Shown here: piece by piece, positions 3,947-48,058 of the stretch
Position numbering within the stretch: the stretch's first letter is position 1
Layout of the letters: every line of letters starts with the position of its first letter
Origin: an uncultured Anaerolineales bacterium
GTDB lineage: Bacteria > Chloroflexota > Anaerolineae > B4-G1
Reading direction: 5' to 3'
NCBI GenBank assembly: GCA_964575455.1
Contig: CAZNRX010000001.1
Span: forward strand, 112,527-176,526
DNA: 64,000 nucleotides
The notes under the pieces: generated by a model
Told to the model about the DNA's origin: nothing
The model's database searches: none
The model's input: only the letters and a program-made list of their open reading frames with translations
Program-made: the position numbers and the translations under genes

Positions 3947-5386
3947 CTAGGGCTGGGGGCGGCCACACACGGGCGGCCCCGGTCTCGCCTCCAGCTTGGC
4001 CCGGCTGACGATCTCGTCGAAGATGTCGGCGCCCGTCAAATCCGTCTTCTCGCTCCTGGCCACGCTCAGGTTGCGCCGGAACCCGTGCGAGAGGTCCTCG
4101 CCCGTGGCGTAGCGCGTCAGGGCCAGGGCGCGCACCGCGTTGGCAATGGCATAGCGCGGCTCGTAGCGGTCCAGATCGCCGAAGAAGAATGTGCAGCTGA
4201 TGTACATCCTCTGGCGATGGAACTGAGCCTCCAACAGATGGAGCAAGCGCTGCGTCTCCTCGCTGGTCAGATGTCCCAGGCCGTTTCCGTTCAGGAAGGC
4301 ATCCTCGGATACCTTCCCCAGCACCACGTCGATGTAGCGGTCCCGCAAGGGCCAGGGCTTGAACCCCAGCTGATTCGCTTCGCGGGCGTAGATCTGGTCC
4401 AGATCGCAGGCCAGATTGTCCAGGGCCCGTCGGAGCGCGCCCTTCCACCGGCTATTGCCAGGGGTGCAGCCGCAGCCCACAACCCAGCGATCCAGCCCGT
4501 GAGCGCAGCTCCAGGCAGTGTTCTCGATCACCCTGATCTCGGCCTCCGGCGGGTGCTGATTGAGATAGAGCCCCAGCGTGGTCAGCTGGTACCCATGACG
4601 CTCTCCGGCGCCCAGGATGTGGCTTAGCACCTGCGCGCCCTGGCGGTGATGGTGGCCGAACGTCTCGCCGTCGGTGGCGACGATGTGCAGGCCATCCCTC
4701 TGGCAGCGCCACGCCACGTGCTCCTTCAGCCAATCTTCAACGTACGCCGAGTCCGGCATGCCGAAGGAGAGGTGGTTCGATAGATGACGATCGCGCACGA
4801 AGATGGCGATCTCACTGCCGTTGGGCAGCGCCACCCGGTAGGGCCCTCCGCCCGTCTCCAGACTGCCGTACACCTGCTCGTCCGAGAGGATGGTGAAGCG
4901 AATGCCCTCTGCGGTCAGCACCTCCAGCGTCTCGTGGTCCACCGCCATCTCCGGGAGCCACATGCCGTCCGGCCGGTGACCAAAGCGATGCTCGAAGCTG
5001 GCGATCCCCCAGCGCACCTGGCAGATCTTGTCGCGCCGGCGGGCCAGCGGCAGGATCGTGTGGTGGACCGATTGGGCCAGCCCGTTGCCCATACCATGGG
5101 CCCCTCGGTACGCCTGGTCGGCCCCGACGATGCGCTCGTAGGTCTGGTGAGCCTCATCGTCGAGCCAGCGGGCCAGCGTCCCTCCCAGGTTGAAGCTGAT
5201 GCGCTCGAAGTTGCCCGCCCTTGCGTTCGGCTCGTAGCACTCCGCGGTGATGCGCTCGTTCCAGTTGGCGTAGGGAGCGGCGCTGGGCTCCCTGGAGATG
5301 CGGCCGGTGAACGGATCCTCCCGCGGGGGCTGGTAGAAATGGCCGTGAATGCAGAGACGGCAGCGTGCGTTGCTTTGACTATCCAT
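3947..5386 (-). CDS. Glycoside hydrolase family 57 protein (GH57 branching-enzyme/alpha-amylase-like).
   Basis: N-terminal 'CIHGHFYQPPRE' GH57 signature. Start taken at MDSQSNARC; the ORF extends 33 codons upstream without GH57 similarity. Confidence 0.8.
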   Translation of the reverse strand: MDSQSNARCRLCIHGHFYQPPREDPFTGRISREPSAAPYANWNERITAECYEPNARAGNFERISFNLGGTLARWLDDEAHQTYERIVGADQAYRGAHGMGNGLAQSVHHTILPLARRRDKICQVRWGIASFEHRFGHRPDGMWLPEMAVDHETLEVLTAEGIRFTILSDEQVYGSLETGGGPYRVALPNGSEIAIFVRDRHLSNHLSFGMPDSAYVEDWLKEHVAWRCQRDGLHIVATDGETFGHHHRQGAQVLSHILGAGERHGYQLTTLGLYLNQHPPEAEIRVIENTAWSCAHGLDRWVVGCGCTPGNSRWKGALRRALDNLACDLDQIYAREANQLGFKPWPLRDRYIDVVLGKVSEDAFLNGNGLGHLTSEETQRLLHLLEAQFHRQRMYISCTFFFGDLDRYEPRYAIANAVRALALTRYATGEDLSHGFRRNLSVARSEKTDLTGADIFDEIVSRAKLEARPGPPVCGRPQP

Positions 5387-5560
5387 AGCGTTGTCTTTTC
5401 GTGCTCCTGGCGCGGCTTCAACCGCGATCATTGACGCTCTATTGTAACACCGCAGCTCCACAGCAGCAACGTGCCGCAGGCACAAAGGACTTTGCGGTTC
5501 TTGGCGGCCGGAGGACGGTGCGGATCCGGATGGTCCCGTCCCGTGAGGGCGACGCGCGGG

Positions 5561-6031
5561 CTACTCGATCGTCTTCAGATCATCCAGCAACCAAGATTGC
5601 GCATCTTCGTCCGGGACGGTCTCTGCTATGCGGTGGGCTTCGTCAAGGTACGAGGCCATCGTCTGGCACTCACCCGCCACGAGCTCAGCTCTGGCCAGCG
5701 CCTCGTATGCGTAGGCCAGGTAAAAGGGCGGCATGTCGTCATCTTGGCTGGCCTCCAAGCATAGGTGGGCGTATCGTCTGGCGTTCTCGGCCTGGCCGAG
5801 CACGGCATAGATCCTCGACGTTTGCCAGTATGCGGCTGAGATGTTGGCCGGCGCGCAGTCCTCGCGCTGCGTCCAATGCCAGTGCGAGGCCAGACTCAGG
5901 CGGATCATCTGCTCGTCATCTTCGGCCGTCCGGTCAGGCTTGTCCAGCAGCTCCCACGCTTCGTTGAAGCAGTGGGCGGAGAAATACCTGTGTGCAGCGT
6001 TCAGGTCGAAGGTGGGCTTTGCCATGGTCAT
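5561..6031 (-). CDS. Hypothetical protein (156 aa), acidic, no recognised domain.
   Basis: Clean ORF with protein-like composition between glucan genes; no motif recognised. Confidence 0.45.
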   Translation of the reverse strand: MTMAKPTFDLNAAHRYFSAHCFNEAWELLDKPDRTAEDDEQMIRLSLASHWHWTQREDCAPANISAAYWQTSRIYAVLGQAENARRYAHLCLEASQDDDMPPFYLAYAYEALARAELVAGECQTMASYLDEAHRIAETVPDEDAQSWLLDDLKTIE

Positions 6032-23467: not shown

Positions 23468-25234
23468 ATGGCTGAGGGACCGAGGCGCAGGCTTTTGCTG
23501 ATGATCGCCTTGCTAGCGCTGGCGGTGGTGATCACCGTGGTGCAGCTGGTCAAGGTTCAGATCGTCGATCATGAGTTCTACACCAACTGGGCCAAGGAGC
23601 AGCGCGTGAGGGCGGTCAAGATGGCCCAGCCTCCACGGGGCGCGATTCACGATCGGGATGGATATCTTTTGGCCGGCAACGGGGTCAGGTACGCCATCGA
23701 AGCAGCCCCGGCCTACGTGATGAAGAAGCAAGAGGCGGCGGAGGCGTTGGCGTCGGTGCTGCATATGCCGGCCTCGCATTTGGAGGCCCAGTTAAGCAAG
23801 CGCGGCGAGAACGGGCACTACAAGATGTGGGTTTCCGTGGCTGGGTCCGTCTCCCGGGAGATGGGCGAGGCGGTCACTGAGCTGGACATCGGCGGTATCA
23901 CGGTCAGACCGCTCTGGCAGCGAGTGTATCCTGAGGACTCGCTGGCGTCTCATACGCTGGGCTTTGTCAGCGTGGTGACGGGCTACTATGGCGTCGAGGG
24001 CTTCTACAACGCGATGCTCCAGCCCGAGCCGATCAGATGGGTGGGGCCGGTGGACGTCGAGAGCGTGCCCATTCCTTGGGAGCCTGTCGAGGGGGAGTTC
24101 CCTCGCCGCGGCGTGAATCTGGAGCTGACGCTGGATCGCACGGTGCAGGCGCTGGTGGAGGCCGAGCTGGCACACGCTCTGGAGACGTATCAGGCTGAGT
24201 CGGGGACGATCATCGTCATGGAGCCGGAGACGTTCGGGATTCTAGGCATGGCCAGCCTGCCCAGCTACGATCCTGAGGACTACGCTCGGTTCGCCAATCA
24301 AGAGCCCCTGTTGTTTGAGGATCCGGCGGTGAGCAGGCAGTACGAGCCCGGTTCCGTGTTCAAGATCGTGACGGTGGCGGCAGCGCTGGACAGTGGGACC
24401 GTGATGCCGGACAGCGTCTATCACGATCGGGGCTGGATCGAGGTGGGCGGGCGCGCGATCCATAACGCCTCGCGCCAGTCCTACGGGGATCAGTCGGTGA
24501 TCGACATCCTCGTCAAGTCTCTCAACGTGGGGGCCGCGTGGCTGAGCACGAAGATGGGACCAGACATCTTCTATCAATACGCGCAGGACTTTGGCTTTGG
24601 TGAGATGACTCACGTCGATCTGAACGGAGAGGTGCGAGGTCAGCTGTGGCTGCCGGAGGATGTTGAGGATTGGTCCCCCTCCCATTTGGGGACGAACGCC
24701 TTTGGGCAGGGCGTGGCGGTGACGCCGCTGCAGATGGTCACCGCGATGGCGACCGTGGCCAACGATGGAGCCCGCCTTCGGCCTCACATCGTGCATCGCC
24801 GCGTGGCCTCCGACGGGACCCCGTCGGTCTTCCATCCGGTCTTCCAGGAGCAGGTGCTGGCCCCAGAGACCGCTCGTACGCTCACGGATATGTTGGTGCA
24901 GGTGGTTGAAGAGGGAGCGACCCAGGCCAGGGTGGAGGGATACCGGGTTGCGGGCAAGACCGGCACGGCTCAGATTCCCATCCCGGGCGGCTATGACCCG
25001 GAGGGCGCCATCGCCACATTTGTGGGCTTTGGGCCTGTGCCGGATGCAGGGTCGACGGGCGATTTCGCCCAGGTACCCGAGTTGGTCGTCCTGGTGAAGC
25101 TGGATCGCCCCCAGAGCTCGCCGTGGGCGTCCCAGACGGCGGCGCCGACGTTCCAGCGGCTGACGGCACGGCTGTTCACCATGTTGGGCATCCCGCCCAG
25201 CAGCGGCGAGTTGATGGCGGAGGTGGGACCGTGA
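23468..25234 (+). CDS. ftsI: Peptidoglycan D,D-transpeptidase FtsI (class B PBP).
   Basis: N-terminal TM, dimerisation domain, and transpeptidase motifs (SxxK 'SVFK', SxN, 'KTGT'). Confidence 0.9.
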   Translation: MAEGPRRRLLLMIALLALAVVITVVQLVKVQIVDHEFYTNWAKEQRVRAVKMAQPPRGAIHDRDGYLLAGNGVRYAIEAAPAYVMKKQEAAEALASVLHMPASHLEAQLSKRGENGHYKMWVSVAGSVSREMGEAVTELDIGGITVRPLWQRVYPEDSLASHTLGFVSVVTGYYGVEGFYNAMLQPEPIRWVGPVDVESVPIPWEPVEGEFPRRGVNLELTLDRTVQALVEAELAHALETYQAESGTIIVMEPETFGILGMASLPSYDPEDYARFANQEPLLFEDPAVSRQYEPGSVFKIVTVAAALDSGTVMPDSVYHDRGWIEVGGRAIHNASRQSYGDQSVIDILVKSLNVGAAWLSTKMGPDIFYQYAQDFGFGEMTHVDLNGEVRGQLWLPEDVEDWSPSHLGTNAFGQGVAVTPLQMVTAMATVANDGARLRPHIVHRRVASDGTPSVFHPVFQEQVLAPETARTLTDMLVQVVEEGATQARVEGYRVAGKTGTAQIPIPGGYDPEGAIATFVGFGPVPDAGSTGDFAQVPELVVLVKLDRPQSSPWASQTAAPTFQRLTARLFTMLGIPPSSGELMAEVGP

Positions 25235-26755: not shown

Positions 26756-27760
26756 ATGGACAGAGCGCTTATTCTGGCGAGTATCTCGTTTCTGCTGGCG
26801 GTGGTGTGGGGGCCGCTGTTGATCCGCATCCTCCGCCACTACCAGATCGGCAAGCGCATTCGCATCGACGGTCCCAGTGACCACCAGAGCAAGATGGGGA
26901 CGCCAACCATGGGCGGGCTGATGATCGTGGTGCCGGTGCTCCTCATCACGCTCGTGTTGAACATTTACAATCTGTTGGGGCGCACCTTGATCGGACGCTC
27001 AATTCTGGTGCCGCTGGGCGTGATGGTGGCCTACGCTCTGATCGGCGCGATAGATGACTTGGCCGGGGTCCGCGGCGTCCGGCGTGGCCTGGGGCTGACG
27101 GCAGGGCGCAAGCTTCTCTGGGAGATCCCCCTGACGTTGGGCATTGCCGTGTTCATGCTCGTCTCTGATGTCCAGTTCGCGGGGCAAGTCGGCGTGCCGG
27201 GTGTTGCCGAGATGGTCAACGTAGGCTGGGTGTGGGTGCCGCTTGCCATGTTCATCATCCTGAGCTCCGCCAATGCGATGAATCTGACCGACGGGTTGGA
27301 TGGGCTGGCCGGGATCATCGTCGCCAGCGCCTTTGCTGCCTACGGCATCATCGCCCGGCTGCAGGGTCAGTTCTACCTGATTCGCTTCTGCTTCACCGTG
27401 GTGGGGGCCTCCTTTGCGTTCCTTTGGTACAACGCCCATCCGGCCCAGATGTTCATGGGCGATACCGGCAGCCTGGCCCTCGGCGCGACGCTAGGCACGG
27501 TGGCGTTGATGACGGGGCAGTGGCTGCTGCTGCCTGTCGTCATCCTGATTCCAGTGGCGGAGACGCTGTCGGTCATCATCCAGGTGCTCTATTTCAAGTA
27601 CACCAAGCGCCGGTTCGGCCAGGGGAGGCGGGTCTTCAAGATGAGCCCACTCCACCATCATTTTGAGCTGTTAGGCTGGTCCGAGACGCAGGTTGTGCAG
27701 CGCTTCTGGCTGGTGGAGCTCCTGGCGGCGATGGCCGGTGTCGCGTTGGCGCTGCTGTAG
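26756..27760 (+). CDS. mraY: Phospho-N-acetylmuramoyl-pentapeptide transferase MraY.
   Basis: Polytopic; 'DDLAGV', 'NLTDGLDGLA' and 'MGDTGSLALG' motifs. GGAGAGG RBS. Confidence 0.92.
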   Translation: MDRALILASISFLLAVVWGPLLIRILRHYQIGKRIRIDGPSDHQSKMGTPTMGGLMIVVPVLLITLVLNIYNLLGRTLIGRSILVPLGVMVAYALIGAIDDLAGVRGVRRGLGLTAGRKLLWEIPLTLGIAVFMLVSDVQFAGQVGVPGVAEMVNVGWVWVPLAMFIILSSANAMNLTDGLDGLAGIIVASAFAAYGIIARLQGQFYLIRFCFTVVGASFAFLWYNAHPAQMFMGDTGSLALGATLGTVALMTGQWLLLPVVILIPVAETLSVIIQVLYFKYTKRRFGQGRRVFKMSPLHHHFELLGWSETQVVQRFWLVELLAAMAGVALALL

Positions 27761-37116: not shown

Positions 37117-38337
37117 GTGGAACGAACGGTAGTCGGTATCGATGTCGGCTCCAGCAAAATATGCACGATGGTGGGAGAGGTCCGTGATAACGGCGACCTG
37201 CGTGTCGTCGGCGTTGGCCTGGTCACGGCGCGTGGCCTGCGCAAGGGCGTGGTGGTCAACGTGGATGAGGCCACGGAGGCACTCGCCGCCTCGGTCGCTG
37301 AGGCCGAGCGCTCCTCCGGGTACAAGCTTGAGCGGGCCTATGTGAGCGTCAGCGGCGAGCACATCTCATCGCTAAACAGCCAGGGTGTGGTCGGTGTCTC
37401 CCATCGCCGTTCAGGCATCACCATCGATGACGTGGAGAGGGCGCTGGACGCCGCTTGTGCCATCACGGTGTCGCACAACCAGGAGGTCATCCACGTGATC
37501 CCGCGTGGCTACGTGGTCGACGGGCAGGGCGGCGTGCAGGATCCCATCGGCATGCACGGCTTCCGCCTGGAGGTTGAGGCTCACCTCGTCACGGCCTCCT
37601 CCACGGCGATCCAGAATCTGTTGAAGTGCGTACGTCAGGCCGGCCTGGAGGCCGACGAGGTCGTCTCGGCGGGGATAGCCGCTGGCGACGCCGTCCTGGC
37701 GGAGACGGAGCGTGAGATGGGGGTGGTGCTAGCCGATATCGGCGCTGGTACCACCGACGTGGCTATCTTCATCGATGGCACTGTGTGGCACACGGTCACG
37801 CTGGGCATCGGTGGCGCCTACGTCACACAGGACATCGCCATCGGGCTTCGTCTGCCTCCGTCTGTCGCTGAGGAGATCAAGGTGAAGCACGGACATGCCC
37901 TTCCGACTCAGGTGGACAACGACGAGGTGTTCACCGTCTCCTCCTTCGGCGACGAGTTCAGCCAGGAGGTGCCGCGGTGGAAGCTGGCCAGCATCGTTCA
38001 GGCGCGGGCTGAGGAGATTCTCTCCATGATCAACAAGGAGATCAAGCGCTCGGGGTACGACGGCCTGCTGCCGGCCGGCGTGGTGCTCTCCGGTGGCACA
38101 GCGCAGCTCCTCGGCATGCGAACCCTGGGGCGGCAAGTGCTCGGCCTGCCTGTGCGCCTGGGCAGCCCCAGGAACCTCCATGGCCTGGTCGATGCCGTCA
38201 GCAACCCGGCGCACGCCGTGGGGGCGGGATTGTTGACCTGGGGGAGCACGGAGGAGGCCCGTCCACAGCTCAAGGTCCGGCCCGGGCCTGGCGGCGGGGC
38301 GCGCATCCTCAAATGGCTGCGGACGTTGCTTCCGTAA
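37117..38337 (+). CDS. ftsA: Cell division protein FtsA.
   Basis: 'VVGIDVGSSKI' actin-fold phosphate-1 motif and 'DIGAGTTDVAIF' phosphate-2 motif. Confidence 0.92.
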   Translation: MERTVVGIDVGSSKICTMVGEVRDNGDLRVVGVGLVTARGLRKGVVVNVDEATEALAASVAEAERSSGYKLERAYVSVSGEHISSLNSQGVVGVSHRRSGITIDDVERALDAACAITVSHNQEVIHVIPRGYVVDGQGGVQDPIGMHGFRLEVEAHLVTASSTAIQNLLKCVRQAGLEADEVVSAGIAAGDAVLAETEREMGVVLADIGAGTTDVAIFIDGTVWHTVTLGIGGAYVTQDIAIGLRLPPSVAEEIKVKHGHALPTQVDNDEVFTVSSFGDEFSQEVPRWKLASIVQARAEEILSMINKEIKRSGYDGLLPAGVVLSGGTAQLLGMRTLGRQVLGLPVRLGSPRNLHGLVDAVSNPAHAVGAGLLTWGSTEEARPQLKVRPGPGGGARILKWLRTLLP

Positions 38338-38430
38338 CGCGAAGGGCACGAAACAGAAGACGAAGAGCGTGAAATAGAGCACGAAGGGCACGAAGCACGA
38401 AACACACGAAACACTATGGGCACGAGATAG
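38338..38430 (+). repeat. Second phased CACGAA/CGAAG repeat array (ftsA-ftsZ intergenic region).
   Basis: 'cgcgaagggcacgaaacagaagacgaagagcgtgaaatagagcacgaagggcacgaagcacgaaacacacgaaacac' with cores spaced ~10 bp. Confidence 0.85.
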
Positions 38431-38508
38431 GGGAGCAAGCAGAGCAACACATCGAGCTGAAAAGGGGACAGAATGGCACTCTCGCATCACGACATTGGAG
38501 GAGGAACA

Positions 38509-39585
<1,077 letters not shown>

Positions 39586-39812
39586 CGTCTCTGCGCTTCA
39601 CTGGCGCGCAGGCACGAGAAGAGTGCGCGGGGAGCGCGGGTCCGGTCTTCTGGCGGTGCGTCACTTTCCGCGCGCAGCGGATCTGCCACGGGCCATCGGC
39701 CCGTCCGCCGTCGCGGCCCGCTGTTGCGACGCCTGTCTCAGACTTGTCGGTCGTGTGCTGAGAGCTGTTCTATATCTTGCGTAGGCTTGTGCTCGATAGT
39801 GGGGCCTGGCGG

Positions 39813-39844
39813 TATGGCGCGTGGTTCTGGCCGACCACGCGCCA
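39813..39844. terminator. Strong GC hairpin (12-bp perfect stem ATGGCGCGTGGT/ACCACGCGCCAT, 8-nt loop), a candidate factor-independent terminator for the convergent ftsZ and aminotransferase transcripts; no U-tract.
   Basis: Perfect inverted repeat seen directly, located between two convergent genes. Confidence 0.45.
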
Positions 39845-39948
39845 TATCGGCCTGTGCCTGATCTCCTGGTCAGATGGGGGCTGGTGCGTGGCCGCGAGAT
39901 CGGGTGCAGCAAAAGCGACGGGGCGCGGGCTGACTCTGCCCGGGCTCC

Positions 39949-41121
39949 TCAAGGCTCGCCCGTAATGTTGAGGGCTGCCAACGCCTTCCGCATCCTCTCC
40001 AGCGCTTCGATCAGCATCGAGCGTGGACATCCGAAGTTCAGCCGTGCGAATCCCTCTCCCGCCTCACCAAAGACCGCGCCGTCGACCAGGGCCACCCTGG
40101 CTTCTTCCAGGAAGAACGTATAGGGATTGCCTGGGATACCAGACTGGTGGCAGCTCAGCCAGGCCAGATAGGTCCCCTCCGGCTTGCCCATCGTGATGCC
40201 GGGTAGCTCCCGATCCACGTAGTCCAGCAGAAAATCGCGATTCCCCTCCAGGTAACGCAGCACCGCGTCCAGCCAGGGCTGACCGTCGCGATAGGCCGCT
40301 AGAGCGGCCGTATACCCCAGCACGTTCACGCCTGACATCAGGCCGCCGTGTGTAGCCTTGAGGCTATCCCGGAGCTCCTGGTTCTCGACGATGGCCACCG
40401 CGCACTTGAGCCCGGCGATGTTGTACGTCTTGCTTGGTGCCATCAACGTGATCGACTGCTGCCCCACCTCCGGGGCCAGCGCTGCGATCGGCGTGTGCAC
40501 GTTGTCGTCGAGCAGCAGGTCGCAGTGAATCTCATCTGAACAGATGATGATCTCGTGTCGCAGACAGATCTCAGCCATCCTCTGCAGCTCATCGCGCCGG
40601 AAGACGCGTCCCACAGGGTTGTGGGGATTGCACAGGATGAAGATGCGGGTCCGGTCGCTGATGGTCCTCTCGAACAGGTCGAAGTCGATCTCGTAGGCTC
40701 CGTCCGACCGCCGGGTGAGTTCCATCTCATCGTTGATCAATCCGGCGTCGGCCGGGGCCTCCAGAATGGGCCGGTAGACCGGCGTTTGGACCAGCACACC
40801 CTCCCCAGGAGAGGCAATGGCGTGGCATGCCAGGTTGAAGCCAGGCACGACCCCCGACAGAAAGATCAGATCCTCTGGCGAGACGTGCCAATCGTAGCGT
40901 TCATGCAGCCGGCCGACGATCACCTCTCGAAGCCCGTCCGGCGCCGTGCCGTAGCCAAAGATGCCATGCTCGACCCGTTCCTGCAGGGCGCGTATGACAG
41001 GCTCCGGCGCCGGGAAGTCCATATCCGCCACCCACATGGGCAGGACATCCTCACCGTAGCGGTGCCATTTGATGCTTTCGAACCGTCGTCTGTCAATGCG
41101 TCTGTCGAAGTCGTAGATCAT
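39949..41121 (-). CDS. PLP-dependent aminotransferase class I/II, MalY/PatB-type C-S lyase (cystathionine beta-lyase-like).
   Basis: 'SKTYNIAGLKCA' PLP-lysine region and 'FILCNPHNPVGRVF'; MalY/PatB-like overall. Start at MIYDFD; the ORF extends 22 codons further upstream. Confidence 0.8.
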   Translation of the reverse strand: MIYDFDRRIDRRRFESIKWHRYGEDVLPMWVADMDFPAPEPVIRALQERVEHGIFGYGTAPDGLREVIVGRLHERYDWHVSPEDLIFLSGVVPGFNLACHAIASPGEGVLVQTPVYRPILEAPADAGLINDEMELTRRSDGAYEIDFDLFERTISDRTRIFILCNPHNPVGRVFRRDELQRMAEICLRHEIIICSDEIHCDLLLDDNVHTPIAALAPEVGQQSITLMAPSKTYNIAGLKCAVAIVENQELRDSLKATHGGLMSGVNVLGYTAALAAYRDGQPWLDAVLRYLEGNRDFLLDYVDRELPGITMGKPEGTYLAWLSCHQSGIPGNPYTFFLEEARVALVDGAVFGEAGEGFARLNFGCPRSMLIEALERMRKALAALNITGEP

Positions 41122-41287
41122 CGTGATGCTCAAATCCCCTTTTCCACGCGCCGAGGACGGCGACCGAGTCGCCATCCCTGCCTTCACCCATTCTATATCG
41201 GATGGGGCGGCTCGTCAACGCCAAACCCTTGTGCTCTGCTGGTACAGCCTTGCGCTTGAACTTTAAGATTATCTGTGCCATGCGGGC

Positions 41288-41374
41288 TTGCCCGCTGTCC
41301 CCGCCTATGGTATAATGGGGCCATACTATCCCCAACATATGGGGTTCACTACCCCACAAGACCCCATATGTGGG
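41288..41374 (+). promoter_or_regulatory. nrdR promoter (-35 TTGCCC at 41288-41293, 17-bp spacer, extended -10 TGgTATAAT at 41308-41316) followed by two NrdR-box-like palindromes (CCCAACATATGGGG at 41331-41344; CCCCATATGTGGG at 41362-41374).
   Basis: Two imperfect palindromes centred on CATATG, 29 bp centre-to-centre, downstream of the -10 box. This resembles tandem NrdR boxes (consensus roughly acaCwAtATaTwGtgt) and would imply autoregulation. Confidence 0.6.
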
Positions 41375-41486
41375 CACTCTGTCTCTTCAATGCATAATAG
41401 CAGTGAGCTCAGCGCATTGAGGCGCCAATGCGCTCAACATCTGCCCTCGGGCGGAGTATTCTCTGTTCAGCGTAGGAGAAAGGTTT

Positions 41487-41939
41487 ATGAGATGTCCATA
41501 TTGTGGCAGCAAACGCACTAGGGTCGTCGACACCGCGCGCAAGGAGCATAGCATCCGCCGTCGTCGAGAATGCAAGGAATGTGAGAAGCGCTTCTCGACC
41601 ATGGAGCGGGCCATTCTCACGACGCCACTGGTGGTCAAGCGTGACGGCCGCCGTGAGGCCTTCGACCGGGAGAAAGTTCTCTCTGGCCTGCGGGTCGCGT
41701 GCGCTCGGCGGCCCGTGTCGGCCGGCGATCTGGAGCGCGTGGTCGACCGGGTTGAGAGCCATATCCGCGAGTTGGGCAAGACCGAGATTCCCACCCGCGC
41801 CATCGGTGACGTCGTGATTGAGGAGCTGAAGTCCCTGGATCCTGTCTCCTACATTCGCTATGCCATCATCTACCTCGGGCTGGAGGATTTGGAGGCGGTG
41901 CGGACAGAGGTCAACCGCTTGCTGGAGGAACAGGAGTAG
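41487..41939 (+). CDS. nrdR: Transcriptional repressor NrdR (zinc ribbon + ATP-cone).
   Basis: 'MRCPYCGSKRTRVVDT...RRRECKECEKRFST' zinc ribbon and an ATP-cone domain; 150 aa. Confidence 0.93.
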   Translation: MRCPYCGSKRTRVVDTARKEHSIRRRRECKECEKRFSTMERAILTTPLVVKRDGRREAFDREKVLSGLRVACARRPVSAGDLERVVDRVESHIRELGKTEIPTRAIGDVVIEELKSLDPVSYIRYAIIYLGLEDLEAVRTEVNRLLEEQE

Positions 41940-42049
41940 CGTGGAGGGGCCGAGATGGAGCCGGGCCATAGCGTCGCACCCGCGATGCCGGTTGCCTGAT
42001 GGGGTGGCCGCAGGTTGATCGCGAGGGCGACGGAAGGAGTGAGGGTTCG

Positions 42050-42685
42050 ATGGCAGAGACACCAGATCTGAGCGGTGTGCCCCTGCGCCTGAACAAGCAC
42101 GTCTATGAGTATTATCAGTTTCAAGGATATGATACGAATGACTGCGGGCCTACCAGCGTGGCGATCGCGGTGAACGCCTTGTTGGGGGGCTGGGTGCTGG
42201 AGGGTCCGGTCGTGGCCGAGGAGATGAGCCACGTCGCCTTCGAGTGGAAGCCCCTGCCCCACCTGGTGGTGCCCCGCATTCCGAACTGGGCCACCTTCCC
42301 ATGGGGGATCGCCCACTACCTGCGGAAGCAGGGGTTCCGCGCCCGCTGGCGCCTGTTTGGGACGCTGGAGAGACTAGAGCGCAACCTGCGCGCTGATCTG
42401 CTGACGATGGTCATAGTAGGCGAGCCTTGGAAATGGGCTAGGGACGATCCAGATCAGTCCGGGCGGGAGCGATGGGTCTATGATGGATGGGGGCACGTCA
42501 AGATCCTCTATGGTCAGCTGCCGGGGCGCAGGTTGTACTTCGTCGATCCCGGCTGGAACGCCGAGAACAGAGAGGATCCCTTGGAGCGGTTTGGCATCTT
42601 TTCGCAGGAGGAGGACCAATTCCTTCGTGAGTGGCGGAACTTGCTGCGTATCTTCATTGAGGTGGAGGAGAATCCGCGAGCCTAA
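42050..42685 (+). CDS. Papain-like cysteine peptidase, C39-like domain protein (hypothetical).
   Basis: 'QFQGYDTNDCGPTSVAIAVNAL' fits the C39/C39-like Cys motif (Q...xDCGxxxLxM), with a downstream 'GHVKILYG' His. GAGGG RBS before MAETPD. Confidence 0.5.
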   Translation: MAETPDLSGVPLRLNKHVYEYYQFQGYDTNDCGPTSVAIAVNALLGGWVLEGPVVAEEMSHVAFEWKPLPHLVVPRIPNWATFPWGIAHYLRKQGFRARWRLFGTLERLERNLRADLLTMVIVGEPWKWARDDPDQSGRERWVYDGWGHVKILYGQLPGRRLYFVDPGWNAENREDPLERFGIFSQEEDQFLREWRNLLRIFIEVEENPRA

Positions 42686-42761
42686 GACCGGATGACGAAG
42701 GTGGGTGAGGTGCTCCCTGAGCCTGCCTGTTGAGTATGTTGCATAGCATGAGGAGAACAGC

Positions 42762-43139
42762 ATGTCAGATCGCAATGCCGCGTCGCCTAAGATGACTGCG
42801 CCCATCCATGAGCTTCTCATCGTTTGGACCAGCGGCGACCGGGACGTCGCGCTGAAGATGGTCTTCATGTACGCCGCCAACGCCAAACGACATGATTGGT
42901 GGGATGAGGTCAATCTACTCGTCTGGGGCTCCTCGCAGAAGCTGCTGGCGGAGGACTCGGAGCTCCAGGCCGAGCTGACCACGATGATCGAGCTGGGTGT
43001 GCACGTGGGCGCGTGCAAGGCCTGCGCCGACGGCTACTCGGTCACCGAGCAGCTCGAGGAGCTGGGCGTGGAGGTCTTCTACAGCGGCGAGTACCTGACC
43101 GACTGGATCAAGTCGGGCCGGGCCGTGATCACATTCTAG
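42762..43139 (+). CDS. DsrE/DsrF/TusD-like sulfur-relay family protein.
   Basis: ~125 aa with 'LIVWTSGD' and 'GACKACADGY' characteristic of the DsrE fold. Confidence 0.6.
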   Translation: MSDRNAASPKMTAPIHELLIVWTSGDRDVALKMVFMYAANAKRHDWWDEVNLLVWGSSQKLLAEDSELQAELTTMIELGVHVGACKACADGYSVTEQLEELGVEVFYSGEYLTDWIKSGRAVITF

Positions 43140-43149
43140 GCCCAGCCCC

Positions 43150-43272
43150 GGTGCGTTGGTGCATTGCACGTGCCGTGCGTGCGGGCCACCTGGCGGAGTA
43201 CGGTGCGTTGCACGTGCTGTGCGTGCGGGCCACCTGGCGGAGTACGGTGCGTTGCACGTGCCGTGCGTGCGA
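43150..43272 (+). repeat. Tandem repeat, ~44-bp unit x2.7 (ggtgcgttgcacgtgcYgtgcgtgcgggccacctggcggagtac), each copy carrying the palindrome GCACGTGC.
   Basis: Copies at 43150-43201 (with an 8-bp internal duplication), 43202-43245 and 43246-43272 (partial). GCACGTGC at 43166, 43210 and 43254, exactly 44 bp apart. Confidence 0.9.
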
Positions 43273-43313
43273 CGCATCTGGAGCAGAGCAGCGAGCTGCA
43301 CGTTTGGAGATAC

Positions 43314-43559
43314 ATGGACGAGGAACACACAGACATATCGGACGATGCCAACCAGCGCGAGCTGGAGGAGGCCCCCAACGGGCCGCTCAAGATCGTGATG
43401 GACGCGCGGGATCTGGAGTTCCTCGATGGGGCGTTTGGAGCGGTCACGGCGTTCTTCATGCTGATGTACGTCGACCAGGCCGACTTCCTCGGAAGAGGTG
43501 GAGACAGGATACGGGGTTCTCTGGCCCGAGAGGCCATTGGACGTCCGTCGCTACGTTGA
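43314..43559 (+). CDS. Small acidic hypothetical protein (81 aa).
   Basis: GGAGA RBS before the ATG at 43314. The longer listed ORF starts inside the tandem repeat and is unlikely to be coding there. Confidence 0.35.
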   Translation: MDEEHTDISDDANQRELEEAPNGPLKIVMDARDLEFLDGAFGAVTAFFMLMYVDQADFLGRGGDRIRGSLAREAIGRPSLR

Positions 43560-43700
43560 GCTGGCGCGGCAGGTGGGATTCGACATAGAGGAGCGATGGG
43601 AGAGTGATCGGGTTTTTCGTCTCTCACTGCGCAAAGCGTGAGATGGGTCGACAGAGGGCGTGCCGATGATGGAAGCAATTTCAGTGAAGGAGGATAGACG

Positions 43701-44477
43701 GTGGAGGAGATGACGACGATGGCGTCGCTGCGAGAGGTTTTTACGTTTCCTTTTCGCGGTCCCGACTGGAAGCAGCCCTTCATCATCGGGTCCGTGCTAC
43801 TGATCGTGAGCTTCTTCATCCCGATCCTGCCGCTGATCTTCGTCTGCGGCTACGTGCTCGTGGTGATGCGTCAGGCCATCCGGGGGAATGAGCTCACCCT
43901 GCCGCGTTGGGACGACTGGGGCAAGCTGGCGGGGGACGGCCTGCGCGCCATGCTGGTTGGCTTCATCTACCTGCTGCCGGGGCTGTTGGTCGCGTCTGGC
44001 GGCTTTGCGCTATACCTTGCGACCACGTTTGCTATGCCCTTCGCCATCGAGGCTGGAGACGAAACCCTCTGGCCGCTCCTCTTCTTCGGCAGCTTCGCCA
44101 TTATGTTCCTCTCGATGTTTCTCGGGACCCTGCTCACGCTGTTAGGGGCGATTCCACTGCCGATAGCCACTGCGCACTTCATTGACGAGGACGACCTGTC
44201 GGCCGCTTTTCGATTCCGTCAGTGGTGGCGGCTGCTGCGCGCGAACCCGATGGGCGTCTTCATCGCCTGGGTGATGGTGGCTGGGCTGATGGCCATCGTC
44301 TATCTGGTCGTCTTGCTGGCCTACTACACACTTGTGCTGTGCTGCGCGGTCCCGTTCCTGGCGAGTCCCATCGGCTTCTACGTCCTGCTGGTGAGCGCCG
44401 CCATCTTTGGGCGCACCTATCGGGAGAGCTGGCGGATGGTGGCGGACAGCCGTGTTGCAGAGAAAAACGGGCCGTGA
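43701..44477 (+). CDS. Polytopic membrane protein (DUF4013-like), 258 aa.
   Basis: 6-7 TM helices with the conserved-looking '[10 protein letters not shown]' and '[11 protein letters not shown]' segments. GGAGGAG RBS. Immediately upstream of nrdJ. Confidence 0.55.
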
Positions 44478-44572
44478 AAGAAGCTTGCGCTTCAGCTTTC
44501 GCATCGGAACCGCGCAACTTTGGCCCGATACGTTACTTGACCCCTTCGGCCCATACCGAGATTGGAGAGAAT

Positions 44573-47023
44573 ATGACGATACAGGAAACAATGGAGATTG
44601 ACGCACCTAATCAGGAGGCATCCATTGAAGACAGGCTTTCCGAGAACGCCCTGAAGGTCTTCCAGCGCCGTTACGTGCGCAAAGGACCGGACGGACAGCC
44701 CGTGGAAACGGTAGCGGGTGTCTTTCGTCGTGTCGCCTCCCATGTCGCCGCTGCCGAGGAGGGCCTCAACGGCGACGCTCAGCGGGCGGAGAAGATCTTC
44801 TTCGACCTTATGACCCGGCTCCACTTCCTGCCCAACTCGCCGACCTTCACCGGCGCGGGCACGCCTCTCTCACAGCTGGCGGCCTGCTTCGTCCTACCTA
44901 TCTCCGACGACATGGGGCGTCGGGATGATGGCATCTTCGAGACGCTGCGGGACATGGCGCTGATTCAACAGACCGGTGGCGGTACCGGCTTCTCGTTCTC
45001 CCGTCTGCGGCCTAAGAGCGCCGTCGTTCATTCCAGCGGCGGCGAGGCCACCGGCCCAGTCGGCTTCATGCAGGTCTACGACACCGCCTCCGAGATCATC
45101 AGCCAGGGCGGAGCGCGGCGCGGCGCGAACATGGCGGTCCTCCACGTCAACCATCCCGACATCCGCGACTTCATTCACTGCAAGTCGAGTGAGTACGCCA
45201 TCACCAACTTCAACATCTCCGTCGGCATCACGGATGACTTCATGCGGGCCGTCGCCCAGGACGAGAACGTCGACCTGGTCAACCCTCAGGATGGGGAGGT
45301 ATGGGAGACCGTCGCCGCCCGGGAGCTGTTCGACGAGATGGTGAAAGCGGCCCATCGGAACGGCGAGCCAGGCTTGCTCTTCTTGGACACGGCCAATCGG
45401 GACAATCCCACGCCCCATCTGGGCGACTATGAGGCGACCAATCCGTGCGGAGAGCAGCCCTTGCTCCCCTATGAGAACTGCTGCCTGGGATCCATCAACC
45501 TGGCGCGTCACGTGAGGCCGGCCAGCAACGACGGCAGGCGCGCGGTCAGGGTGGTCGACTGGGAGAAGCTTGAGGAGACGATCCGACAGGCGGTCCGCTT
45601 CCTCGACGATGTCGTCGGCGCCAACGGATACGTGCCGGCCGTGCCCGAGCTGCGCGAGGCTGCTCGGCGCACGCGCCGCATCGGCCTGGGCATCACCGGG
45701 CTGGGCGACGTGCTCTATCAACTCCGCGTGCGCTACGGCAGCCAGGAGGCGCGAGATCTGGCCGGCCAGTTGATGGCCTTCATCCGCTACCACGCTATGC
45801 GCACCAGCGTCGACCTGGCGCGCGAGCGAGGCCCCTTCCCGGCCATCGAGGGCAGCGTCTACGATCCTGCGGACGTGCGCTGGGAGCCACCCCAGCCCGT
45901 CGAGCCCTTCGACCCGTCGAACCATTGGGGTCGGCCCTCGCTCCATTGGGACGCCCTCGTGGCCGATATCGAGCGTCACGGCATCCGGAACGCGGCCCAG
46001 ACGACCATCGCGCCGACGGGCACCCGCTCGACCATCGCCGGCATAGAGGCCTACGGCTGCGAGCCGGTCTTCGCTCTTGCCTACGTGCGTCACATGAACG
46101 ACAACGGTCAGGACGTGGAACTCGAGTACACCAGCCCTCTCTTCCTGCAGGCCCTGACGGAGGCCGGGTTGGACGAGGCGTCGCGCCAGCAGATCATCGA
46201 GCAGGTAGCGGTCTCTGGGAGCTGTCAGGACGTGGAGCAGGTTCCCGAGGCCATCCGCGAGGTCTTTGTCGTGGCCCAGGACGTTCCCGCGGAAGAGCAT
46301 GTCCGCATGCAGGCCGCGCTTCAGGCCTTCGTGGATGCCTCCATCAGCAAGACCATCAACTTCCCGGGCGACGCAGAGCCTGAGGAGGTGGCTCGCGCGT
46401 TTGAGCTGGCCTGGAAGCTGGGATGCAAGGGCCTCACTGTCTACGTGACGGGCTCGCGCGAGAAAGTGGTGCTGGAGACGAAGGAGACGAGGCAGGCCAA
46501 GCAGCGGCCCACGGCCGGCATGATGTCCACCGATGTGCGGCCGCGCCCTCACACGCTGGAGGGCAAGACCTACAGAGTGCAGACCCCCCTGGGCACAGCC
46601 TACACCACGGTCAACGTCAACGGCGACGGCGAGCCGTTCGAGGTGTTTCTCAACGTGGGCAAGGCCGGGTCGGACACAGCGGCGGTGGCGGAGGCTATCG
46701 GGCGCCTGGTCTCGTTGGTTCTGCGTTTGCCCTCACCCCTCTCGTCCAGGCGGAGGCTGAACCAGGTGGTTCGACAGCTGCGGGGCATCGGCAGTGGTCG
46801 CTCGTTGGGCTTTGGACGTGACCGGGTGCGCAGCCTCCCGGACGGCGTGGCGCAGGTGCTGGCCGAGCACCTGGGCCTTGCGGAGCCCGTGGAGGGCGCC
46901 AAGAGGAGCGAGCAGCTCCCACTCTTCCCGGAGGGCGATCTCTGTCCCGAGTGTGGTCAGGCTTCACTCGTCTTCGAGGAGGGCTGTCGCCACTGCTACA
47001 ACTGCGGCTACAGCGAATGCTAG
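44573..47023 (+). CDS. nrdJ: Adenosylcobalamin-dependent (class II) ribonucleoside-diphosphate/triphosphate reductase NrdJ.
   Basis: 816 aa with '[12 protein letters not shown]', '[11 protein letters not shown]' and '[21 protein letters not shown]' active-site regions, and a C-terminal CxxC...CxxC zinc ribbon. GGAGAGA RBS. The listed ORF starts 117 codons too early. Confidence 0.92.
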
Positions 47024-47041
47024 GTGTTTCTGGAGGGGGGA

Positions 47042-48058
47042 CTACACCACCTCCACGTTCAGCGCGGAGAGGACCGCGTCGATCGGGTTGAGGATCGTCG
47101 CGGCCGGTGACCCCGCGAAGAGCAGGCCCACCACGCGCTTCTCCATGTCCAGCACCGCCGATCCGGAGTCCCCACCCTCGCTCATGGGGCTGGCGATCAA
47201 CTGCCCCGTGAAGAGCGCCTTCGGGCCGTAGTAGTCGATGCGCACCGTGGCGTCGACCTGGGTGATGGTCCCCTTGGTGTAGCCCGTGGTCCGGCCTGAC
47301 TTCTGCACCTCGGTCCCCAGCGACGCTGTGCCGACGCCCACCGGCGTGCCAATGCCCAGGATCTCGTTGGTCACCTGATTCGGCGAGAGCGGTCGCGCCA
47401 GAGCGGCGTCCACTCGATTGGCCGCCTCGCTCCTCTTCACCGCCTCGAGCTCGTGGCGCGACCCCAGGGCCCCTGCGATGACGTTCATGAGCTTCGCCGT
47501 CCAGTCGGCGATGTCGCACTCGGACGGCTCCGAGTCGAAGATCAGAGGCACGTACTCCGCCAGCCTGGCGATCCGGTCCTCCGGCCCGCCACCGTCCGCG
47601 GATCCGGGCTGGAGGATCGGGTCCCAGATCTCGCACGTGTTGGTGTTGGCGAGCACATGGTTGTTGGAGAGGATGAACAGCTCTTCGTCGCGGTGTACCA
47701 GGCAGCCGAACGTGCCGGCGGTGATCAGGTAGTGTCCCACAGAGACGCCGGGTGGGATGACCGGTCGCCAGCGGTCTTGCGGCCCCAGCTCCTCCCCTCC
47801 GGAGGGGAGGGCGCGCAGCAGCCCCGTCTCGACCACATCTGTCTTGACGTTCTCCACCTTCGGGGGCACCAGATCTCGTGCCGTCAGCGCGGCGGCTGGC
47901 TCCTTGTGCGTCACCGAAACCACGACGCTCAGCTCCCCGGTGTTCTCCCCTTGGCTTACCTTGTAGCCCAGGCCAACGCCCACCACGTTGCGCTTCCCCA
48001 GTAGATCGACGGCATGCGTCTCCTTGGCGCTTTTCGCCTGAGCGAGTCCATGCACCAT
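47042..48058 (-). CDS. Chymotrypsin-fold (S1-like) serine peptidase with an N-terminal ~90-aa accessory domain.
   Basis: Candidate triad His 'GHYLITAGTFGC', Asp, and Ser 'GDSGSAVLD'. AGGAGGTGA RBS. The N-domain 'NVVGVGLGYK...ELSVVVSVTHKEP' is paralogous to the upstream small ORF. Confidence 0.7.
   Translation of the reverse strand: MVHGLAQAKSAKETHAVDLLGKRNVVGVGLGYKVSQGENTGELSVVVSVTHKEPAAALTARDLVPPKVENVKTDVVETGLLRALPSGGEELGPQDRWRPVIPPGVSVGHYLITAGTFGCLVHRDEELFILSNNHVLANTNTCEIWDPILQPGSADGGGPEDRIARLAEYVPLIFDSEPSECDIADWTAKLMNVIAGALGSRHELEAVKRSEAANRVDAALARPLSPNQVTNEILGIGTPVGVGTASLGTEVQKSGRTTGYTKGTITQVDATVRIDYYGPKALFTGQLIASPMSEGGDSGSAVLDMEKRVVGLLFAGSPAATILNPIDAVLSALNVEVV

Follow-up and report, generated by a model that had tools for sequence, protein, structure and literature searches.

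A predicted NrdR operator at the nrdR promoter of an Anaerolineales bacterium and its probable link to a distant nrdJ gene

Two 16-bp boxes located at 41330-41376 of the window (the whole 64-kb stretch of DNA that was analysed, with a G+C content of 64%) constitute, judging by their sequence, a canonical NrdR operator at the promoter of the nrdR gene, to which NrdR is predicted to bind. The class II ribonucleotide reductase (RNR) gene nrdJ, which has no such boxes of its own, is probably the last gene of the same expanded operon, headed by the nrdR promoter and this operator, with which it would be co-transcribed.

Operator, promoter and NrdR protein

The original prediction for this locus had described a promoter (TTGCCC, a 17-bp spacer and TGgTATAAT) followed by a pair of palindromes resembling tandem NrdR boxes, and had suggested that nrdR is likely autoregulated. 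The palindromes as first described, CCCAACATATGGGG at 41331-41344 and CCCCATATGTGGG at 41362-41374, are indeed found there with their CATATG centres 29 bp apart, and only their register has been corrected. NrdR boxes were read as 16-mers centred on A8|T9 and not on CATATG, a register in which the distance is 31 bp from centre to centre. Box 1 (CCCCAACATATGGGGT, 41330-41345, approximately +8 to +23) and box 2 (ACCCCATATGTGGGCA, 41361-41376, approximately +39 to +54) are then separated by a 15-bp linker (41346-41360). The criteria for an operator were drawn from published work on NrdR (PMC13584703; PMC12051234; PMC9110341). Two boxes are required by the repressor, their highly conserved positions are C4, A6, A8, T9, T11 and G13, and the linker between them is constrained in length only (PMC13584703), with an optimum of 15-16 bp (PMC12051234). 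Linkers of 15-16 bp were taken as the standard, with 14-17 bp tolerated and 24-27 bp as an alternative. All six key positions are present in both boxes (12/12), and intra-box pairing extends to 5/8 positions in box 1 and 6/8 in box 2, so that both are partially palindromic.

The resemblance to tandem NrdR boxes is also upheld by the statistics of the window. The core C.A.AT.T.G has 13 matches in the 64 kb, compared with 6.7 ± 2.5 in shuffled sequences, and a single pair of cores has the spacing of NrdR sites, namely the one at 41330-41376; any such pair occurred in 0/300 shuffles. A symmetrised PWM built solely from ten experimentally bound boxes of E. coli and S. coelicolor (the literature PWM) gives 15.5 bits to box 1 and 12.2 bits to box 2, which rank first and fourth among all 16-mers of the window. 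The pair reaches 27.7 bits, above the best pair of every shuffle (mean 14.2, standard deviation 2.6, maximum 24.5, n = 200) and inside the range of 20.2-32.9 bits obtained for the validated E. coli and S. coelicolor pairs when each was left out of the PWM. With a second, independent PWM made from the sites of relatives, the window's own being excluded (the clade PWM), the boxes score 21.9 and 16.8 bits and the pair 38.7 bits, against a shuffle maximum of 19.8. Box 1 is the top single box of the window under both PWMs.

Other box-like sequences were encountered as well. A candidate ‘box 0’ (TCCCCGCCTATGGTAT, 41298-41313), with a 16-bp linker to box 1, was rejected, as it has just 4.5 bits and carries G6 and C8, and its score in relatives stems from the TGTGGTAT of the extended -10. 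Lone NrdR-like 16-mers of high score are located at 39767-39782, 23818-23833 and 26965-26980, all without a partner at any allowed spacing; the first is intergenic, between ftsZ and an aminotransferase gene, and the other two lie inside ORFs. These are probably chance matches.

Box 1 begins 14 bp past the conserved extended -10 of the predicted nrdR promoter, designated P1. As depicted by the consensus scan, P1 is a predicted sigma-70-type promoter on the + strand, composed of the -35 hexamer TTGCCC (41288-41293), a 17-bp spacer to the -10 hexamer and the extended -10 TGgTATAAT (41308-41316), with 10/12 matches and the TG present. Its sequence and coordinates agree with those first described, and it is the top-ranked sigma-70-like site within the 3.9 kb scanned (40900-44800). 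A start near 41323 is predicted from the usual 7-nt distance past the end of the -10 at 41316. Approximately 55 bp upstream of this start, an A/T-rich element, AACTTTAAGAT (41258-41270, + strand), ranks with the best-conserved blocks ahead of the -35 in the alignment described below; it is UP-element-like by position only, and an UP element or a site for a different regulator are both conceivable. Farther upstream, a divergent promoter-like site (TTGACG-17-TAGAAT, 41190-41218, - strand) faces the aminotransferase gene, the true start of which is probably Met23 (approximately 41121), from where homologue alignments begin.

The alignment of 11 upstream regions has revealed four blocks kept in nine Anaerolineae/Thermoflexales-like loci (the window, L081-L084, L001, L002, L085 and L087). 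These are the A/T-rich block near -55, CTTGyC at the -35, the almost invariant TGTGGTATAAT comprising the extended -10 region of P1, and the two boxes. The nine orthologous operators retain 105/108 key positions. Among their box 1 sequences, all six key columns are invariant, while 6/10 of the other columns vary. Mean pairwise identity falls to 40% in the linker, versus 81% and 74% in the boxes, and linker length is 15 bp in eight loci and 14 bp in L084. Invariant key columns accompanied by a drifting linker are the footprint expected of an NrdR site. A box pair with a 14-bp linker is also found in L088 and L089, in a diverged context, and in most nrdR loci of other phyla, too, the best-scoring pair is a tandem in front of nrdR.

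The gene behind this promoter, nrdR (41487-41939, + strand), encodes a protein of 150 aa with a Zn ribbon (PF22811) and an ATP-cone (PF03477) in Pfam. With 151.7 bits it passes the cutoff (124.65) of the NrdR equivalog model TIGR00244, and it matches NrdR chains in the PDB with E = 3e-35. The Zn-ribbon cysteines C3, C6, C29 and C32, an RRRR motif at R24-R27 and the C-terminal ATP-cone are all present. Its closest relatives are encoded by MAGs labelled Anaerolineales (85% identity) and Thermoflexales (82%), with metagenome contigs reaching up to 91%, which points to a Chloroflexota source of the Anaerolineae/Thermoflexales type. As nrdR is an equivalog NrdR gene behind an operator that has all the sequence characteristics named above and is conserved in relatives, autoregulation stands as the natural reading of the site; being the first gene of the unit, nrdR would itself be under the control of its product.

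One residue of this protein departs from the studied NrdRs. In S. coelicolor, the NrdR residues Asp15 and Arg17 come close to the bases, and an R17A mutant lacks DNA binding (PMC9110341). The window's NrdR reads D15-T16-A17-R18, with Asp15 kept and the arginine found one position later. This [A/T]17-R18 state is common to the window and its 11 closest relatives (L081-L089, L001 and L002), and Arg17 is present in all 149 other NrdRs fetched. The shift to Arg18 is regarded as real, since the alignment with Chloroflexota NrdRs of the same loop length is ungapped. When operators were chosen by the six key positions only, half-site position 3 was C in 90% of the clade versus A in 63% elsewhere (nCCC versus nCAC). 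As this is a single evolutionary event, a connection between the move of the arginine from 17 to 18 and that of the half-site from nCAC to nCCC is no more than suggestive. Recognition of the boxes by an NrdR with Ala17/Arg18 may differ in detail, and the conservation of the boxes argues for retained NrdR binding despite Ala17. Nothing specific to NrdR in Chloroflexi was found in the literature, and a preprint (10.1101/2025.03.28.645925) is without residue-level information on Arg17. As a natural variant with the essential Arg17 displaced and the operator conserved, this NrdR lends itself to studying box recognition by the Zn-ribbon.

The genes between nrdR and nrdJ

The nrdJ gene (44573-47023, + strand) encodes a class II (B12-dependent) ribonucleotide reductase (TIGR02504, 669 bits against a cutoff of 400), in which Pfam detects the barrel, all-alpha and TSCPD domains and no ATP-cone. 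In the window it does not follow nrdR immediately, as in the Streptomyces-type arrangement, but lies 2,633 bp away. Where four unrelated genes had been proposed to fill this distance, three are intact ORFs and the fourth is a fragment of a SAM methyltransferase gene; all are on the + strand, and the gene after nrdJ is convergent. The first ORF is a candidate C39-like peptidase (42050-42685, + strand), a call that remains weak (Peptidase_C39_2 in Pfam, E = 0.15). It opens at 41999, homologues align from approximately M18 (42050), and orthologues occupy the same position in L001, L002, L081, L082 and L084. It is followed by a DsrE-like gene (42762-43139, + strand; PF02635, E = 5.7e-6), with orthologues in L001, L081 and L084. 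The ‘small ORF’ behind it (43314-43559, + strand) is the remnant of a class I SAM methyltransferase gene, covering positions 24-78 of 95 of Methyltransf_11 (E = 6e-4). The fragment is 245 bp long, the remnant is truncated and apparently frameshifted (43314-43642), and an intact gene for a 232-aa methyltransferase is located at the same place in L084 (8521-9219). The last is a DUF4013 membrane protein gene (43701-44477, + strand; PF13197, E = 1e-31), which is not present in the relatives examined; the AlkD-like gene of these relatives is in turn missing from the window. Just after the DsrE-like gene, a 44-bp tandem repeat (GGTGCGTTGCACGTGCCGTGCGTGCGGGCCACCTGGCGGAGTAC, 43158-43271) has been detected, with 2.6 copies at 95% identity and unique in the window. 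A role for this repeat as a terminator or structured element was rejected, as it shows z = -0.05 against shuffles and no T-run.

The same interval has been filled differently in the relatives. At least five different gene sets, spanning 2-4 kb, occupy the gap between nrdR and nrdJ (in the window, L084, L001, L002 and L082). Besides that of the window, these comprise C39-like, DsrE-like, AlkD-like and methyltransferase genes in L084; C39-like, AlkD-like and DsrE-like genes in L001; PHP, C39-like and AlkD-like genes in L002; and PHP, a 141-aa ORF, C39-like, DUF427 and AlkD-like genes in L082. The gap genes are always on the strand of nrdR and nrdJ, with short gaps and sometimes 4-bp overlaps between them. 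In L085, L088, L089, L003 and L090, nrdJ comes directly after nrdR, with its start approximately 50-200 bp past the nrdR stop. In L087, an intein-containing nrdD and nrdG come after nrdR with a 4-bp overlap, and no nrdJ is found there (L087 975-3977). The best box pair is upstream of nrdR in each of these six loci. A separate observation concerns nrdJ of L001, which has an intein-looking insertion of approximately 1.1 kb at residue 292 (4614-5707). Varied, co-oriented cargo in the clade and adjacency of the two genes in distant relatives are most economically read as an ancestral nrdR-nrdJ operon of the Streptomyces kind (PMC9110341) that insertions have lengthened.

Neither PWM detected a box pair of plausible strength in the nrdR-nrdJ interval of the window, L084, L001 or L002. 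The absence of boxes upstream of nrdJ and of the membrane protein gene at 43701, which the original prediction had noted, was reproduced by the PWM scan of 41940-44660, where the best pair reaches 11.6 with the literature PWM (inside the peptidase-like ORF) or -3.6 with the clade PWM. A weak candidate pair located 185 bp upstream of nrdJ in L004 (Dehalococcoidia), outside the clade of the window, was set aside; it scores 16.5 bits and one of its boxes is without C4 and G13. This absence had led to the suggestion that nrdJ might escape NrdR or be regulated by it from another place, a suggestion against which stand the adjacency of nrdR and RNR genes in relatives, the co-orientation of the gap genes and the lack of an intervening promoter-like or terminator-like site. 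If nrdJ is controlled from 41330-41376, boxes of its own are unneeded, and its apparent escape from NrdR most likely arises from viewing each gene as a transcription unit of its own. Co-transcription from nrdR through to nrdJ, starting at the operator-bearing promoter, is accordingly rated as somewhat more likely than not.

The rival explanation that survives best states that the boxes autoregulate only nrdR, and perhaps the next genes, while nrdJ has an unrecognised promoter of its own, either free of NrdR or controlled from outside the window. We regard this as unlikely, yet as the alternative that deserves the most attention. It draws on the 2.6 kb between the nrdR stop and the nrdJ start, on the lack of boxes near nrdJ, and on the fact that the 561 bp at 43140-43700 and the 95-bp gap before nrdJ could hold a promoter below the scan threshold. 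The former stretch, with its tandem repeat and gene remnant, could be the likeliest hiding place of a missed promoter or a non-canonical terminator. Against this explanation, nrdR adjoins an RNR gene in the wider clade, and linkage and co-orientation persist across at least five insertion states. Consensus scans detected no promoter-like site between the two genes in the window, L084, L001 and L002, and no terminator-like site in the window or L002; L084 and L001 have only weak terminator-like hairpins, inside genes. An unusually stable hairpin is likewise missing, with the window's four intergenic RNAs folding no better than shuffles. Among the four genomes, conservation is lacking in the 95 bp ahead of nrdJ, which also speaks against a dedicated promoter, even if it is neutral regarding a weak one there. 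Finally, the lack of an ATP-cone in NrdJ means that transcriptional dATP sensing would be the sole overall feedback on the enzyme.

Should the single expanded operon be correct, the locus shows an RNR operon acquiring unrelated genes under one operator, which would place the cargo under the control of the dNTP pool. A broader proposal can be made with somewhat less than even confidence, namely that the nrdR-nrdJ operon of this clade is an insertion hot spot, where one dATP/ATP-sensing operator governs a transcript of approximately 5.7 kb with non-RNR cargo, and where the arginine shift from 17 to 18 and the half-site shift from nCAC to nCCC belong to the same history. The cargo would then be the C39-like, DsrE-like and DUF4013 genes in the window, and genes for a PHP phosphoesterase, an AlkD-like DNA-alkylation repair protein, a methyltransferase and DUF427 in the relatives. 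For annotation purposes, an nrdR-led operon with its NrdR operator can be entered at this site, and the lack of boxes at nrdJ should not be equated with lost NrdR control.

The nrdR leader and other readings of the boxes

Between box 2 and nrdR, a 5' leader of 110 nt (41377-41486, + strand) contains two hairpins and the ribosome-binding site AGGAGA (41474-41479). Hairpin 1 (AGCGCATTG/CAATGCGCT, 41411-41434, + strand) is kept in seven close relatives, with a few compensatory changes on both sides of its pairs. Hairpin 2 (41440-41455, + strand) has a U-rich tail and was flagged as terminator-like in the window and L084. The leader is absent from L085 and L087, and the leaders of L088, L089, L003 and L090 are not alignable, so that hairpin 1 is not extendable to distant relatives. 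For the nrdR leader and the region ahead of nrdJ, a riboswitch or another catalogued RNA was considered and discarded, as an Rfam scan of 38000-48000 at E <= 1, covering both, gave no match. The leader hairpin with its U-rich tail could serve as an attenuator or stabiliser, adding a second layer of control.

The leader also bears on the choice of promoter. A second promoter-like site, P2 (TGGGCA-16-CATAAT, 41371-41398), overlaps box 2 with its -35, and if it were the working promoter, the boxes would be located upstream of or over the promoter as in S. coelicolor. P2 has 9/12 matches in the scan, and overlap with the polymerase binding site is frequent among NrdR boxes (PMC9110341). Its CATAAT is nonetheless unconserved, being replaced by CCTATA, TCCATA, GGCTTG and similar sequences in relatives, while P1 is near-invariant in nine loci, including L085 and L087, which have no leader. 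P2 is therefore an improbable promoter for nrdR, and P1 is retained.

The complementarity of the boxes raises the question of whether they act as RNA, forming a 5'-terminal leader hairpin that affects mRNA stability or translation. The boxes form an inverted repeat (14 nt, 93% complementary, with a 15-nt loop), and in the minimum-free-energy structure of the leader they are paired with each other; the leader folds with z = -3.9 against shuffles. Any two palindromic boxes are mutually complementary, however, and the hairpin may be a by-product. The complementarity between the boxes drifts from 10 to 14 of 16 positions in nine relatives, and changes in box 1 are uncompensated in box 2. The invariant columns are instead exactly the six NrdR contact positions, and a function of the boxes as RNA appears very improbable next to their reading as an NrdR operator. 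The idea of a chance resemblance, or of a site for another CATATG-binding factor, can point to isolated box-like 16-mers that arise by chance in the window (13 core matches where 6.7 are expected) and is barely credible, given that a correctly spaced pair is found in no shuffle, that the scores exceed all shuffles with two independent PWMs, and that the pair recurs upstream of nrdR in nine relatives and in many phyla.

Comparison with known NrdR systems

The behaviour of the operator can be proposed by analogy with the NrdRs of S. coelicolor and E. coli. A tetramer of NrdR carrying dATP and ATP would use its Zn-ribbons to bind the two boxes, bending the DNA sharply, and with box 1 placed within the footprint of RNA polymerase, the bound repressor would block polymerase binding or escape. 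When dATP falls, the oligomeric state of NrdR would change, the DNA would be released and the promoter would fire, giving one transcript that probably runs from nrdR through the peptidase-like, DsrE-like and DUF4013 genes to nrdJ. ATP-only forms of NrdR do not bind DNA (PMC9110341; PMC12051234). An operator downstream of the -10 has a precedent in E. coli nrdAB, where boxes 1 and 2 are the functional ones (PMC12176259).

The closest counterpart is the nrdRJ operator of S. coelicolor, with the boxes TCCCCACATCTAGTGG//AGCCCACAAGTTGTGG (PMC13584703), for which organism a cryo-EM structure of NrdR bound to DNA has been determined (PMC9110341). Both systems carry a pair of 16-bp boxes ahead of nrdR, spaced by a 15-bp linker, and agree in the six conserved positions and in the C-rich and G-rich flanks of the boxes; in the window, too, nrdR is predicted to be autoregulated and a class II reductase to end the operon. 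The window differs in that its boxes are just downstream of the predicted -10 and start, while those of S. coelicolor are upstream of or over the start. It also differs in having approximately 2.6 kb between nrdR and nrdJ, a 110-nt structured leader after box 2, and Ala17/Arg18 in NrdR. Boxes 1 and 2 of E. coli nrdAB share with the window the 15-bp linker and the position in the downstream promoter region (PMC12176259; PMC13584703). The E. coli ‘box 0’ over the -10 is non-functional and unbound, similar to the weak pseudo-box at 41298-41313. Unlike the window, E. coli nrdAB is a class Ia operon with AT-rich boxes (xxxCTATATATAGxxx), and its nrdR is encoded elsewhere. In the NrdR regulon of Rodionov and Gelfand (2005), tandem boxes reportedly occur upstream of nrd operons and often of nrdR, which is said to be frequently clustered with nrd genes. 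The window departs from this comparative-genomics picture by having non-RNR genes inside its putative NrdR-controlled unit. The kind of operator is thus already known, and the one described here is, by all its sequence features, an ordinary and well-conserved NrdR operator heading a predicted nrdR-led RNR operon.
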